A DNA stretch of 64,000 nt from Escherichia virus TH47: the sequence record MT446416.1. The stretch is one strand, 5' to 3'. The notes under the pieces are model-generated. The model saw only the letters and a list, made by a program, of their open reading frames with translations, was not told where the DNA came from and searched no databases. The position numbers were made by a program, and so were the translations under genes. Position 1 is the first letter of the stretch. Each line of letters opens with the position of its first letter. Shown in pieces: positions 16,715 through 34,721 of this stretch.

Positions 16715-17509
16715 TTAAATTACATACGGTTTATAGTAATGAATCTCGTTTGCGATTGCAGTGAAGACTTTATTATTAAATCTTTCACCATAATCACGAA
16801 GTGATTCACCTTCTTCGCTTTCAATGAAGTAATTATATACTGGTAGACGTGCGTTGTCAACACCTATAAATGATTTCATGTAAATTTGTACTAAACGATT
16901 CATTCCTTCATTTAAGCATTGCACCTCAAAGTGCTTGATACCTTTGTCTAAATGTTTGAATGCATTAATGATACCACGTTTAAAATCACGCTGCATAGTA
17001 CTGAATAAATTCTCAGGGAACACGGTAATAGGTGACATTGATTTAAGAATGTATGTATCTTTGGCATTCTTAATGTACTCAATAAAGCAGTAGTTAACGT
17101 CCGGCTCAATTGAACGATCCGCGTTATGATACCAGTGTTTAAACTCACTGTACTCAGCAAACTTATGCTGGCGTAATGCGTTACAATCCTCACACAGTGC
17201 AGTTATGTTCTCTTTATCATTACCGCCCTGGAGACAGTCCAGTACATTATGGTCTAACGTCATGCGTACAAGGCGTTTACCTTTAAGTACATAAGGTCTG
17301 AATTTATAACGGTCTTTAGTACTGTGCTTATGTAAAGTGAATACCACATTGGATTCACCACAACAATCACATTTAAAGCCATCACGTGACATTACATGAA
17401 TGAGTTTTCGAGTATTTGGGCCGAACTCAGATTTAGTAATGTTGCCGACAATTTCTGATGGGTCGTAGTATTTTGAATTCCGGCGAATCAATTCATCTAT
17501 AGTGCTCAT
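16715..17509 (-). CDS. HNH endonuclease (264 aa)
   Basis: CDCCGE...LTLDHNVLDCLQGGNDKENITALCEDCNALRQH: Cys pairs plus a D-H..N..N HNH core. Confidence 0.7.
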   Translation of the reverse strand: MSTIDELIRRNSKYYDPSEIVGNITKSEFGPNTRKLIHVMSRDGFKCDCCGESNVVFTLHKHSTKDRYKFRPYVLKGKRLVRMTLDHNVLDCLQGGNDKENITALCEDCNALRQHKFAEYSEFKHWYHNADRSIEPDVNYCFIEYIKNAKDTYILKSMSPITVFPENLFSTMQRDFKRGIINAFKHLDKGIKHFEVQCLNEGMNRLVQIYMKSFIGVDNARLPVYNYFIESEEGESLRDYGERFNNKVFTAIANEIHYYKPYVI

Positions 17510-17510
17510 T

Positions 17511-17741
17511 TTACATTAATCCTTCTATGCTACAACCAATAAGTACTTTTTTCACTTCAATAACTCGTACCAAATAGAATCCATTTGAAAAGTTAAAACT
17601 ATACATTTGTACTAAGGCATCTGCTTCAGATTTCGCACGGATACATGATAGATATAGTTCTCGTATATCGCCATCCAACGATGCTTGTTTCTCGTCATTG
17701 ATAACAATAGAACGAATCTCAAAACGAACACCATAACTCAT
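17511..17741 (-). CDS. hypothetical protein (76 aa)
   Basis: ORF track. Confidence 0.55.
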   Translation of the reverse strand: MSYGVRFEIRSIVINDEKQASLDGDIRELYLSCIRAKSEADALVQMYSFNFSNGFYLVRVIEVKKVLIGCSIEGLM

Positions 17742-17947
17742 TCTGTTTGTCCAACAATTAGTTTTTCTTTAGTATTACTATTGTAACACCACATTAATTC
17801 TTCACCAACTGTTCTAAGTGAAACGCTGTTTACTTGTTCATACGTACTGTCACGTACTGCAATGCATTGATTCATTGAATTCATTGGGGTGATTTGTACA
17901 CCAGATTGTGGTGAAAGAGCAATAATTAAAAAGATTACTGAATTCAT
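17738..17947 (-). CDS. secreted small protein (69 aa)
   Basis: Signal-peptide-like MNSVIFLIIALSPQSG. Confidence 0.5.
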   Translation of the reverse strand: MNSVIFLIIALSPQSGVQITPMNSMNQCIAVRDSTYEQVNSVSLRTVGEELMWCYNSNTKEKLIVGQTE

Positions 17948-18552
17948 TAGATATTCCTCAATGGTTAATCATCCATCTCTTCGAGATGTCTGTTCGCTTC
18001 TAATACTACGTATTCTACGCGAATGAATCATAACTGTCAAGGACTTTTAATATTGACGGGATTTGTTGAGGACTTTTTCATCCCCCGCAGGGGAATGATG
18101 GTAAGAAAAAAGAGACAATTAAGTCTCTTCTTGACGCTGATGGCATCGGATTTTATTGTATCGTGAATTTAGGACGGATCTATATTGTAATAAATCAATC
18201 GCAAACGGAAGCGGGTTGCTCTGTTTCTCCCTATCACGGTCATATGCAACGGTCACTGGTCTTTTCATCCCAGCACTCACTTAAAACTCCATACAATCGA
18301 AGTTCAAGCTGTCTTATAATAAGACTCCCTTAGCAAATCTGGTAAGGTGCGATCCTTATATGTCTATCGAGGAACTCTCGGTATGCTTATCGGAGTTCTT
18401 TATACAGCCGCATTGCCGTGAGGGGTTCAAACTATGCCCACATCTAACGGGTTTCTTTTGCTGTTCGTTCTGTAGCACAACTCATCTGCCCTCTACATTT
18501 TCGAGTGGTTCAGGATTATTTTATTCTAAATGAGCTACAGGTTTTTTTTATT
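17948..18552 (-). ncRNA. candidate large structured non-coding RNA (strand uncertain)
   Basis: 605 nt with no ORF of 60 aa or more in any frame. Hand-counted 60-nt lines are 42-48% G+C versus 28% for a line in the adjacent gene. Several 6-8-bp hairpins (18079-18100, 18110-18129, 18371-18399). Confidence 0.35.
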
Positions 18553-18558
18553 CTAAAT
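18519..18558. repeat. 13-nt direct repeat TTTTATTCTAAAT x2 (18519-18531, 18546-18558)
   Basis: Read directly; the second copy spans the stop codon of the AP2/HEG-like gene. Confidence 0.7.
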
Positions 18559-19185
18559 TTTACTTAATGACAAAGTAATACGTCCATTAAGTAAATCATC
18601 GTTTAAAACATCAATTCTACGTTGTAAACCTTTTATTACACCATCTGACACACTATTATTATATTTTTTAATAATATCAGAAAGATGTTCTTTTTTGGCT
18701 AATTGCCATTTTGCATGAGCTTCTTCAGGTGTGGGAAATGCACCCAAATGATATTTTTTCTTATTTTTGTAAATTTGTGCATAATATGGATTTTTGTATT
18801 CAAAACTCATATTTTTTTTAGGTATATGATAACAAACACCAAGTGGTTGATTTTTATTATTTTTGTCAATGATACACATGTTTATTTCATTTGGTACAAA
18901 TGAACACGTTTCAGGAGAATACATTTTTTTATTACCGTCGATTAAATCTTTATCTAATTCATAACCATCTTTGTAATTTGATATATACCATTCTTTAAAT
19001 TTAGAGTATGTTTTCCATTCATCACATATAATAACTCCTATATATGTTTTATGAGTTTCTTGATACTTTTCAGAATAACATCGTTTTATCATATCTTTCC
19101 ATGTATAATAAACTTTACTATAAACACTTTTTTTTGTGGAATCACCTTTAACATCATTGATTCCAAAACCATATACCAATTTCAT
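18553..19185 (-). CDS. AP2-domain, homing-endonuclease-like DNA-binding protein (210 aa)
   Basis: YYTWKDMIKRCYSEKYQ..Y.GV.ICDEWKTYSKFKEWY, then KKYHLGAFPTPEEAHAKWQLAKKEH (AP2-like). Free-standing between a terminator and the ORF-free segment. Confidence 0.55.
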   Translation of the reverse strand: MKLVYGFGINDVKGDSTKKSVYSKVYYTWKDMIKRCYSEKYQETHKTYIGVIICDEWKTYSKFKEWYISNYKDGYELDKDLIDGNKKMYSPETCSFVPNEINMCIIDKNNKNQPLGVCYHIPKKNMSFEYKNPYYAQIYKNKKKYHLGAFPTPEEAHAKWQLAKKEHLSDIIKKYNNSVSDGVIKGLQRRIDVLNDDLLNGRITLSLSKI

Positions 19186-19246
19186 ATTAAATTCCAATTA
19201 TGGTTATCATACTAACATTGTATCACACTTTCTAAATTTGTCCCAT

Positions 19247-19273
19247 AAAAAAAGGGCTGACAGAAGTCAACCC
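19247..19273 (-). terminator. intrinsic terminator (cassette copy 5, UUCU loop)
   Basis: GGGUUGAC-UUCU-GUCAGCCC plus U7 on the minus strand. Confidence 0.75.
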
Positions 19274-19280
19274 TTTAATC

Positions 19281-20246
19281 TTAAAAATCTTCGAACTCAT
19301 AACCTTTTGTCTTAACCATCTTACGCAGTCGTTCCATTGCTTCAGAGTACTTACGGTGCAATGAAGAACGAGCAGTCATGACCTTACCCTTCTCATCTTC
19401 AAAACCACTCTCAATGATTTCTCGTAGCGTTTCTGGTTCAGAATAAGAACCAATACCATGTACACGTTCAATCAATTCACGGTCTTTGGCAGATAGGTTA
19501 CTCATCATTTCTGCAATACTTTGTACCAGTGGGGTACTGACAGTTTCTACGCCTAAGTTGTAATCAGGTTCAACTGAAGTAACAATGTCAGATAATGTAC
19601 TTTCTGAATCATTACTCATTTTCATATTCAATGCTACATAAGTGTTATTGTAAGTTAGACAATTCTTAACGTGTTGAATCTCAATACCAGTCTCTTTTGA
19701 CACCATCTCAGGAGTTGGGTATTTACCATGTTTCCTTTGATACTCTTCAACACAACGTTTCACATAAATGTTATTAACACTCATATAACGTGGGAAATGC
19801 ACTAGATAATTAGCATCTGCACTTTCGTTATAGATTGTCATGTACACAGTTGTTGTTGCATATGTAATGAACTTAACATTTTTGGTAGTGTCGAACGTAT
19901 GAATTGCTCGCATTAAACCTTCAACACCATAAGAAATCTTATCTTCAAATGGGATAAAACATGTACATTTACGTGCAACACTTACTACCATTGGATAGTT
20001 GTAGCGAACCAAAAGGTCAATGTTCTTTTCAACGTCAATACCATCACGCACTGCTTGGATGAGCATTTCATTCGTTATACCTTTAGGGCGAGTTAAACTG
20101 ATACCTGTTTTTGGTTTCTCAAACTTGTGACCGTCATGTTCTTCTTCATCAACCGAATCTAGAGCCTCTAAGACGTTGACTTCTTCACTAGCAAAACACT
20201 CATCCAGTACTTCTTCAAAAATTGCATTTAAATCAAGCTTTTTCAC
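19281..20246 (-). CDS. sigma-70 family RNA polymerase sigma factor (321 aa)
   Basis: Region-2-like LVRYNYPMVVSVARKC...YGVEGLMRAIHTFD..KFITYATTTVYMTIYNE. Region-4-like LSAKDRELIERVHGIG...TLREI...RSSLHRKYSEAMERLRKM. Confidence 0.8.
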   Translation of the reverse strand: MKKLDLNAIFEEVLDECFASEEVNVLEALDSVDEEEHDGHKFEKPKTGISLTRPKGITNEMLIQAVRDGIDVEKNIDLLVRYNYPMVVSVARKCTCFIPFEDKISYGVEGLMRAIHTFDTTKNVKFITYATTTVYMTIYNESADANYLVHFPRYMSVNNIYVKRCVEEYQRKHGKYPTPEMVSKETGIEIQHVKNCLTYNNTYVALNMKMSNDSESTLSDIVTSVEPDYNLGVETVSTPLVQSIAEMMSNLSAKDRELIERVHGIGSYSEPETLREIIESGFEDEKGKVMTARSSLHRKYSEAMERLRKMVKTKGYEFEDF

Positions 20247-33340: not shown

Positions 33341-33368
33341 TTTAATTTCCTATTATCATTTCGTTTTG

Positions 33369-33441
33369 CGACTCTGGAGGAACTCGAATCCCCAACCAAT
33401 TAATTAACAGTTAATCGCACCACCAATTGTGCTACAGAGTC
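33369..33441 (-). tRNA. tRNA-Asn (anticodon GTT), 73 nt, CCA not encoded
   Basis: Hand-folded cloverleaf GACTCTG-TA-GCAC-AATTGGTG-GTGC-G-ATTAA-CTGTTAA-TTAAT-TGGTT-GGGGA-TTCGAGT-TCCTC-CAGAGTC-G. Confidence 0.85.
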
Positions 33442-34173: not shown

Positions 34174-34478
34174 TGAGCCATCTGTGAGTCGAACACAGTA
34201 CCTAACGATTCGTATAATCTATAGTTTTCACTATAGTACGGACTATATCATCATCCCATAGGGATGCCGGACGCTAATGATGTATTACACAGTAAGATCG
34301 TACTGTACCATCTAGTCTCTGCACCTTCCCAATACGCTTATTGGGCTTGGCTCAGGATTGTCATCACCATTACGTGTTAAGATTTCCCTGAATTCATCCA
34401 GTTTTTCAATCACCATTACTGATGAAAGTCACCATTGTCGATGAGTCGTTTGCTCTAACCACCGTGAGCTAATGGCCC
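34174..34478 (-). tRNA. tRNA-Met/Ile2-type (anticodon CAT) interrupted by a 230-nt intron
   Basis: 5' exon (34478-34441) GGGCCAT-TA-GCTC-ACGGTGGTTA-GAGC-A-AACGA-CTCAT. 3' exon (34210-34174) AA-TCGTT-AGGTA-CTGTG-TTCGACT-CACAG-ATGGCTC-A. The joined exons give a canonical cloverleaf. Confidence 0.85.
34211..34440 (-). mobile_element. group I intron (IC3-like) in the anticodon loop of tRNA-Met
   Basis: Follows U36 and ends in G. Contains CAGGGAAA, CAATCCTGAGCCAAGCC, GGGAAGGTGCAGAGACTAGATGG and TAGTCCG, which match the core of bacterial tRNA group I introns as I remember them. No ORF inside. Confidence 0.8.
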
Positions 34479-34507
34479 GATTTGGGTGTTCCTAGTGTTT
34501 CATTATT

Positions 34508-34721
<214 letters not shown>

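Follow-up and report, generated by a model that had tools for sequence, protein, structure and literature searches.

Introduction

Large structured RNAs of unknown function are rare: to our knowledge fewer than a dozen classes have been described, and those that are well studied all come from Gram-positive, extremophile or uncultured sources. Each such class has revealed unexpected biology. Some are accompanied by protein genes, as HEARO is by the gene of IscB and OLE by oapA-C. Folded RNAs also serve in replication, and ColE1 RNA II and the T4 origins oriF and oriG combine a promoter for the host RNA polymerase with a folded RNA of ~0.5 kb and need no element-encoded protein. The hallmarks of the ColE1-type primer are a persistent RNA-DNA hybrid at the origin, processing by RNase H and the antisense RNA I, and several origins per genome are used by T4-like phages. 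Phage mimics of host immune RNAs, such as the pseudo-ToxI of phiTE and the RNA anti-CRISPRs, are short repeats with a known protein partner adjoining. GOLLD and ROOL are large ornate RNAs of phages and prophages, which form RNA-only homo-oligomeric cages as seen by cryo-electron microscopy (cryo-EM; PMC12286853), and in the Pseudomonas jumbo phage PA5oct RNA-seq defined four long non-coding RNAs (lncRNAs) of 236-619 nt, two of them abundant throughout infection (PMC7318152). Here we analyze a gene for a large non-coding RNA on the minus strand of a 64,000-nucleotide stretch of Escherichia virus TH47 (sequence record MT446416.1; the whole stretch is called the window in what follows, and positions refer to it), and we describe the family of RNAs to which it belongs, with members in jumbo phages and in integrative islands of bacteria.

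Results

The RNA is encoded from position 18541 to 18053 of the window, on the minus strand, and the comparison of its homologs demonstrates a complex fold that is conserved across the family. We assembled a sense-oriented alignment of 40 copies, including seven from bacterial islands, and curated a model of 17 helices and 84 pairs with one pseudoknot. In this model 94.8% of the paired cells can pair, against 80.4% in shuffled alignments; compensatory double changes are present in 52 of the 84 pairs, against 35.6; and the covariation score is 0.422, against 0.162. None of 500 shuffles reached any of these values, and when the partners were slid by 1-3 columns only 35-44% of the cells paired. 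RNAalifold, run on 28 copies, returned 47 pairs, 24 of which have compensatory double changes and almost none of which is broken. Moreover, the sense strand of the window copy has a fold z-score of −2.81 relative to dinucleotide shuffles. These results show a fold that includes long-range closures and one pseudoknot and in which covariation supports at least 15 helices. The length variation from copy to copy is restricted to hairpins and does not come in multiples of three; the peripheral hairpins vary freely while the junctions and the pseudoknot core are nearly invariant. The window copy belongs to the family by full-length, reciprocal single-sequence and profile matches, and it has the core helices A, B, D, F, H, I and J and the pseudoknot E, all with Watson-Crick pairs.

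An earlier note, made from the letters of the window alone, had singled out positions 17948-18552, which are flanked by the open reading frames (ORFs) 17738-17947 and 18553-19197, both on the minus strand, as an ORF-free, G+C-enriched and hairpin-dense segment, and had proposed a large structured RNA. The homologs support that reading over a decayed gene, as relatives share no conserved ORF and covary strongly. Inside the interval the longest ORFs in any frame have 40-57 aa, and none reaches the 60 aa that the note had set as its limit. The G+C enrichment is real and moderate, with 0.41-0.45 over 18100-18499 (in 200-nt windows) against 0.34-0.37 in the left flank and a mean of ~0.34 for the 64 kb, and the contrast drawn in the note was overstated because the adjoining inserted endonuclease gene is unusually AT-rich (0.25-0.28). 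All three stems that it listed exist, and each is conserved in relatives: the one at 18079-18100 is hairpin P1, whose C-rich arm changes from C to U at five positions with U.G pairing kept on the minus strand; the one at 18110-18129 is, on the minus strand, a hairpin followed by a T-run and resembles a terminator; and the one at 18371-18399 is helix H, in which seven of the seven pairs show compensatory double changes. The 605-nt extent has to be trimmed, as the element proper occupies ~18053-18541, with 17948-18052 belonging to the following gene as its promoter and leader.

To place the RNA among known families we ran cmscan with the 4227 models of Rfam 15 on both strands, at E ≤ 10 on positions 17500-19400 and on three further copies, and at the gathering score on five island loci and the whole window. 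Neither the four copies at E ≤ 10 nor the five island loci at the gathering score gave any Rfam match in the RNA element. GOLLD and ROOL were among the models without a match in these searches, so that the likeness to them suggested in the earlier note holds as an analogy of size and carrier and not as family membership. The models of group I and group II introns, RNase P RNA, tmRNA and 6S RNA gave no match at E ≤ 10, and neither did those of HEARO, OLE and raiA; IscB/TnpB-like or OLE-associated genes were absent from the loci examined. Elsewhere in the window the same cmscan runs did detect known RNAs, namely a group I intron and three tRNAs, and the RNA element is located between complete genes. 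ARAGORN, which looks for tRNA and tmRNA, found nothing in the element, and a hammerhead-like CUGANGA reading of CUGACGAG was rejected, since by eye stem II does not follow the motif and the Rfam ribozyme models were silent. With nhmmer at maximum sensitivity, ncRNA001 and ncRNA002 of PA5oct showed no similarity to the RNA, and homology to the PA5oct lncRNAs is unsupported. The full-text literature that we searched describes the family nowhere, and it is apparently a previously undescribed one.

We consider it very probable that the minus strand is the sense strand. Most of the 40 copies, from phages and islands alike, have on this strand and just 5′ of the RNA body a −35 element (A/T)TGAAAC followed by TGnTATAAT; the deviants are the window copy, with TACAAT, and five island copies plus one metagenomic copy, with TATACT and no TGn. 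This demonstrates that the family has its own strong host-type promoter. In addition, the covarying helices L, D, B and P1 contain wobble cells that would be A.C on the plus strand and are G.U on the minus strand. Such minus-strand G.U cells occur in at least five different lineages for helix L, in 16 of 28 copies for helix D and in seven copies for helix B, and in P1 five pairs alternate between C-G and U.G (41 U.G cells), which would be A.C mismatches if the plus strand were the RNA. Many copies also have, near the 3′ end, a minus-strand hairpin with a U-run.

We first took the plus strand as sense, on the grounds of its TTGACG-17-TATTGT motifs and better local folds, and dropped this assignment on the helix A covariation, the wobbles and the minus-strand promoter. 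The functional RNA would in that case be the plus-strand complement, transcribed from TTGACG-17-TATTGT-like motifs at 18131-18159 and 18053-18081, and the minus-strand promoter would provide antisense or read-through transcription only. We now regard this as improbable. The two motifs do form tandem TTGACG/CTGACG-N17-T(A/T)T(T/C)(G/A)T modules, but the "−10" of the second forms one arm of helix A, and the other arm changes along with it (ATTGTAT:ATACAAT to TTCATGT:ACATGAA), and the constraint on it is therefore one of RNA pairing and not of a promoter. The plus strand of the window copy has a z-score of only −0.89, it carries no conserved terminator, and the A.C cells would fall in its covarying helices. 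Nevertheless, several observations weigh against the minus strand. Some of the local hairpins gain stability on the plus strand, by 1-8 kcal/mol in 57 of 58 comparisons; the invariant G.U that closes the base of hairpin H exists only on the plus strand, as do the G.U cells of a helix GAUGG:CUAUC, which shows no covariation; and the alignment folding energies are equal on both strands and do not separate them. For the RNA gene in general, the 3′ end is not defined, the terminator-like hairpin being missing in many copies and P1 lacking a U-run.

Searching phage genomes with BLAST, we found positions 18046-18524 conserved in 69 records of RaK2/121Q-like jumbo phages, at one to six places each. 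The Klebsiella RaK2-like records gave one short match each and the others four to six separate places, almost all of them unannotated; the hosts of the matching phages are Escherichia, Salmonella, Klebsiella, Yersinia, Erwinia, Cronobacter, Pectobacterium, Serratia and Xanthomonas. Parts of the RNA remain recognizable at great distance: megablast detected only the core 18324-18504 in phages of distant genera (Pectobacterium, Erwinia, Xanthomonas), where the flanking genes went undetected, and in RaK2 and K64-1 BLAST picks up nothing of the RNA beyond 18205-18256, the part with helices D and E. By pattern scans of IMG/VR and profile searches we were able to recover full-length copies, five in Yersinia phage fHe-Yen9-04, three each in 121Q, CBB and GAP32, three in Serratia phage BF (plus two cut off at locus ends), and two to four in each of several ~350-kb metagenomic contigs from IMG/VR. 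RaK2 carries a divergent full-length copy (E 1.5e-42) just downstream of its sigma-factor gene, as in the window; both CGUCAG motifs read CUUCAA there, a concerted change. All copies of one genome are on the same strand, and these results show that genomes of RaK2/121Q-like jumbo phages hold three to six co-oriented copies of the RNA.

Within the 64 kb, BLAST and nhmmer found no second copy. The window copy shares 91% identity with the syntenic copy of ph0011 and 82% (81.7%) with that at locus B of 121Q, which adjoins endonuclease VII (the 121Q regions compared with window positions 18046-18524 were 326672-327150 and 90332-91130). The locus-B copy is nearer to the window copy than 121Q's own syntenic copy is, which suggests that gene conversion may have taken place among the paralogues. 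A proposed synteny of a CBB copy with the sigma-factor locus proved unsupported, its neighbors being without Sigma70 domains, and two further pattern matches (L007 and L011) were discarded as unrelated G+C-rich chance matches. Two types of copy, "a" (e.g., L003, L013, L022) and "e" (L084, L087, L088), have a G+C-rich hairpin and a T-run between promoter and body (alignment columns ~90-125), which could serve in attenuation or in stabilizing the 5′ end.

The RNA is also present in bacteria. A scan with one genome per species gave full-length homologs (E 1e-87 to 1e-98) in six genomes, namely Citrobacter amalonaticus, Silvania hatchlandensis, Enterobacter chinensis, a Buttiauxella metagenome-assembled genome (MAG), Enterobacteriaceae RIT714 and a short MAG contig. 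Among 5426 complete E. coli genomes it occurs in two, the plasmids scanned hold no copy, and a metagenome scan added 41 further loci. At the non-phage loci (among them L119, 292-7323; L100, 8243-18587; L094, L093, L092, L099, L107, L123 and L159) the arrangement is constant: in the direction of the RNA, an integrase gene is followed by the RNA, then by a converging gene for a CI-type repressor with an S24 peptidase, and then by a gene for a Ner-like regulator and further genes, again in the direction of the RNA. Each island has one copy of the RNA, which converges on cI. The integrase itself varies, being one of two kinds of large serine recombinase or a tyrosine recombinase. The cargo of one locus comprises a UvrD-like helicase, DarT and an ADP-ribosylglycohydrolase, and in E. 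coli LR-29-1 an island of ~10 kb between ybaA and ffs carries DuOB, DUF488 and DUF4326. Judged by these predicted products the cargo looks like defence. The RNA thus belongs to the core of a family of small, integrative and apparently SOS-switchable defence islands in Enterobacteriaceae. A 286-aa membrane protein and an LprI-like protein are often encoded with the island core. No conserved partner gene accompanies the RNA in the island copies examined, and no neighboring protein gene is common to the phage and island loci examined. The flanking genes are on the same strand as the RNA in the window and on the opposite strand at 121Q locus B; from this and from its convergence on cI in the islands, the RNA is an independent gene.

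In the window, the transcription unit follows the sigma-factor gene (19281-20246, Pfam Sigma70_r2/r3), whose presence nearby the earlier note had given correctly. The intrinsic terminator of this gene, an 11-bp stem with a T-run, lies at 19251-19276 on the minus strand, and the same hairpin is found between sigma gene and RNA promoter in ph0011 and 121Q. A promoter scan located the family promoter at 19217-19244 (minus strand), a sigma-70-type GGGACA-16-TG-TACAAT with an extended −10, which aligns with the TGnTATAAT promoters of ph0011, 121Q_A and 121Q_B. Reading from 19244 to 19217, this promoter is displaced by ~670 nt from the RNA body because an endonuclease gene is inserted between the two. 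The inserted ORF, 18553-19197 (minus strand, 214 aa), matches PHROG 953, "HNH endonuclease" (E 3.5e-74), and gave no Pfam match; of the AP2/HEG-like neighbor named in the earlier note, the homing-endonuclease likeness stands and the AP2 likeness does not. The ORF is absent at the equivalent site in ph0011 and 121Q and the insertion boundaries are clean in the alignment, which shows that a homing-endonuclease-like gene landed between the RNA promoter and the RNA body, in the short leader of the RNA. Presumably, therefore, the window RNA arises either as the 3′ portion of the transcript of the endonuclease gene or by initiation at a new, weak −10 box (TAGAAT, 18555-18550).

Eight phage records have at least 99% identity to parts of 17700-18800, none of them spanning most of the query; these matches may fall in the endonuclease-like ORF, perhaps a mobile gene that is spreading. 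Another gene for an HNH-type endonuclease is found at 16715-17509 (minus strand), 0.6 kb downstream of the RNA, with a weak Pfam HNH_5 match and a homolog that is annotated "HNH endonuclease" in 121Q and ph0011. The neighborhood of the RNA seems to attract homing endonucleases.

The RNA body, ~490 nt at 18053-18541 on the minus strand, is delimited by nhmmer family matches (E 1e-108 to 1e-150) and by the 17-helix model, and its product would have ~440 nt if transcription ends at the hairpin and U-run of 18129-18103. Its first helix, L, pairs CUGUAGC (18540-18534) with GCUACAG (18476-18470) and encloses hairpin M (18513-18486). Elsewhere in the family helix L reads CUGAUUGA:UCAAUCAG, CUGAAAGG:CCUUUCAG and similar, of which the window pair is a compensatory variant, and it is kept in the window copy despite the adjacent insertion of the endonuclease gene. 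The region of helices I and J (18404-18464) encloses a variable hairpin and the invariant CGGCAAUGCGGC; helix I (18464-18460 with 18408-18404) is 100% paired, with four of its five pairs doubly changed, and helix J (18450-18443 with 18421-18416) is 96% paired. Hairpin H (18372-18398) shows up to four Watson-Crick pair types per position. The core domain, 18155-18297, comprises helix A (18297-18291 with 18161-18155; six of seven pairs doubly changed), hairpin F (18276-18252), helix B (18238-18234 with 18166-18162) and helix D (18231-18227 with 18211-18207), the latter two 100% paired with four of five pairs doubly changed in each, and the pseudoknot helix E (18250-18246 with 18219-18215), which crosses B and D and is 100% paired with three of five pairs doubly changed. 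A conserved module of ~20 nt, in the sense direction UACAAUAUAGAUCCGUCC with a small hairpin, lies at 18172-18190 of the window; the copies differ in which of two alternative sites it occupies, as though the module had been moved about within the RNA, and in copies other than that of the window it is found between the CAAUC and CUCCCUUA blocks.

Toward the 3′ end, the sequence reads as a terminator-like hairpin, AAGAGAC-UUAAUU-GUCUCUU followed by UUUUUCUU (18103-18129), which is present in a subset of copies; its stem varies and yet pairs in other copies (GUACAC..GUGUAC, AUACC..GGUAU), always with a T-run after it on the minus strand. Then come hairpin P1, CAUCAUUCCCC-UGC-GGGGGAUG (18079-18100), with a nearly invariant G-run arm, and the 3′ conserved block CAAAUCCCGUCAA (18053-18061), which is nearly invariant across the 40 copies. 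The motif CGUCA(G/A) occurs twice in the RNA, at 18139-18130 and again in this block, which may form an internal pairing with AAGGGAG and GAC, where G-C/G.U alternation is seen without double changes. Outside the RNA, the next gene has its own promoter, TTGACA-17-TAGAAT, at 18012-18040 on the minus strand (11 of 12 consensus matches), and a leader at 17948-18011; its ORF, 17738-17947, belongs to PHROG 37707.

Finally, in another part of the window, Rfam matched a group I intron at 34219-34532 on the minus strand (100.5 bits), between tRNA-Asn (33368-33441) and tRNA-Ser (34632-34721). An insert in the cmscan alignment of the intron resembles the 5′ half of a tRNA (GGGCCAUUAGCUCACGGUGGUUAGAGC...CUCAU), so that a tRNA gene interrupted by the intron may be present here, one that ARAGORN did not recognize.

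Discussion

The family is one of large structured RNAs of mobile elements, and its unusual traits are that it is multi-copy in virulent jumbo phages and has core status in integrative defence islands. Like GOLLD and ROOL, it spans several hundred nucleotides with many conserved helices and a pseudoknotted core, has no associated protein gene, is carried by phages and mobile elements and not by core genomes, and is of unknown function. Unlike them, with which it shares no sequence or structure match at E ≤ 10, it resides in Enterobacteriaceae and virulent jumbo phages and not in Firmicutes or lake and rumen taxa, it forms three to six dispersed paralogues per genome and it is besides a core part of integrative defence islands. 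PA5oct is a distant relative within the RaK2/121Q/GAP32 clade and has ORF-free regions of similar size. Indirect features of the RNA, namely its size, its host-type promoter and its G-run, recall ColE1 RNA II, but no antisense regulator or unwinding element was identified for it, its conserved core is far more elaborate than RNA II, and, in contrast to an origin of the ColE1 or T4 kind, the window locus has no change of skew; we know of no sequence similarity between the RNA and RNA II or the T4 origin transcripts. As with phage mimics of host immune RNAs, the virulent phage carries, in amplified form, an RNA that a defence-associated element of bacteria also has. It differs from those in that no conserved partner gene lies beside the island copy and an immune role of the island RNA is not indicated.

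Our preferred reading, which we consider moderately probable with the gene call itself included in that estimate, is that of an RNA gene whose product acts in trans, together with a factor encoded by the host or the phage or by titrating it, and whose dosage matters to the phage. Host RNA polymerase would transcribe the RNA from the start of infection, and the folded product would then bind and titrate a factor, or work together with one, which would be supplied by the host or the phage and not encoded beside the RNA. Action in trans is suggested because the RNA alone is common to phage and island loci, and because the peripheral hairpins vary while the junctions and the pseudoknot core are nearly invariant; the maintenance of several ancient paralogues in the phages suggests that dosage matters. 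Some points tell against this reading. The action in trans, the partner and the effect of dosage are all things that we infer; the co-orientation of the copies carries little weight because it represents a single ancestral arrangement (chance about 1 in 8 to 1 in 16); and the full-text literature searched holds no transcriptome for Asteriusvirus or RaK2-like coliphages.

The main rival, which we hold to be unlikely but well ahead of negligible, is an element of a replication origin. The transcript would be a pre-primer forming a persistent R-loop, as ColE1 RNA II and T4 oriF/oriG do, and extended by a T4-like phage replisome or by host Pol I; several copies would mean several origins per 350-kb genome, and the island copy would serve replication after excision or would hijack the phage replisome. 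The copies are indeed dispersed at conserved places (~30, 175, 260 and 335 kb of ~355 kb in Yen9-04, CBB, GAP32 and BF) and co-oriented within a genome, a strong host-type promoter precedes a folded RNA of ~500 nt, the size established for RNA II, and, as in ColE1-type origins, no dedicated partner protein is encoded nearby. Moreover, the nearly invariant G-run and the strongly conserved 3′ block show no covariation, and could thus be read at the level of DNA or of a hybrid. On the other hand, junctions and a pseudoknot that are near-invariant from phages to islands exceed the needs of a primer, the GC skew passes monotonically through the locus and shows no inflection anywhere in the 64 kb, and a 650-bp gene lies between promoter and RNA in a window copy that is otherwise intact. 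As for the islands, whose gene content was seen in part, the absence of a rep gene is not established.

We find it very unlikely that the RNA is a cis-acting regulator, that is, a leader, attenuator or antisense RNA for downstream phage genes or, by convergent transcription, for cI. Such a role would fit the island RNA, which always converges on the 3′ end of cI, the "a"- and "e"-type copies, with their attenuator-like hairpin and U-run between promoter and body, and the window RNA, which lies upstream of small same-strand genes. But each phage locus has different neighbors, on the other strand at 121Q locus B, the downstream gene of the window has a near-consensus promoter of its own, and a conserved pseudoknotted fold of 500 nt, identical in unrelated contexts, far exceeds known leaders.

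Still more improbable to us is a non-autonomous mobile element, or its target or remnant, spread by transposition or homing, in which the RNA structure would be incidental or serve mobility. A family of three to six copies, with members in unrelated mobile elements, signs of gene conversion among paralogues, an internal 20-nt module at two alternative positions, a homing-endonuclease-like gene inside this very transcription unit and another HNH gene 0.6 kb downstream would all agree with it. But the boundaries show no terminal inverted or direct repeats and no target duplications, no transposase or reverse transcriptase is associated, the Rfam models of introns, HEARO and ribozymes do not match, and the positional paralogue groups are conserved across genera, so that the copies are old and fixed.

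The idea of a decayed protein gene, or of a small-protein locus, can be dismissed almost entirely, even though some annotators place two to six short "hypothetical proteins" over the region, because no frame is conserved (ORFs over the core differ between copies in frame, start, stop and length on both strands, and in many copies a TAG comes right after the apparent ATGTCTATC "start", the ATG at 18360), the length variation is confined to hairpins, and the substitutions in stems are compensatory. Such short hypothetical proteins run across the RNA in several GenBank records, including RaK2 ORF245 (L162, 1358-1564), and they are probably spurious, as the region covaries and conserves no frame.

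A bolder reading is also possible, and we offer it tentatively. The family would be an undescribed class of large pseudoknotted RNAs that is a "core gene" of two opposed kinds of mobile element, of virulent jumbo phages, with three to six early-expressed copies, and of the SOS-switch integrative defence islands of their hosts, with one, and it would act in phage-host conflict as an RNA by which one party mimics, or sets a decoy for, the RNA of the other, as a protein-free R-loop origin for islands that ride the phage replisome, or as an RNA-only assembly like those of GOLLD and ROOL.

The family is present in culturable phages of E. coli, Salmonella, Klebsiella, Yersinia and Erwinia (121Q, PBECO4, phAPEC6, RaK2, GAP32, CBB) and in chromosomal islands of E. 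coli and Citrobacter, and hence genetics, RNA-seq, pull-downs and cryo-EM are immediately feasible. The RNA accounts for unannotated gaps of 0.6-0.7 kb, and for some spurious "hypothetical proteins", in the records examined and probably in many of the 69, and it is a marker that defines a family of integrative defence islands. It may also offer a handle on the start of infection by RaK2-like phages, some of which are candidates for phage therapy.

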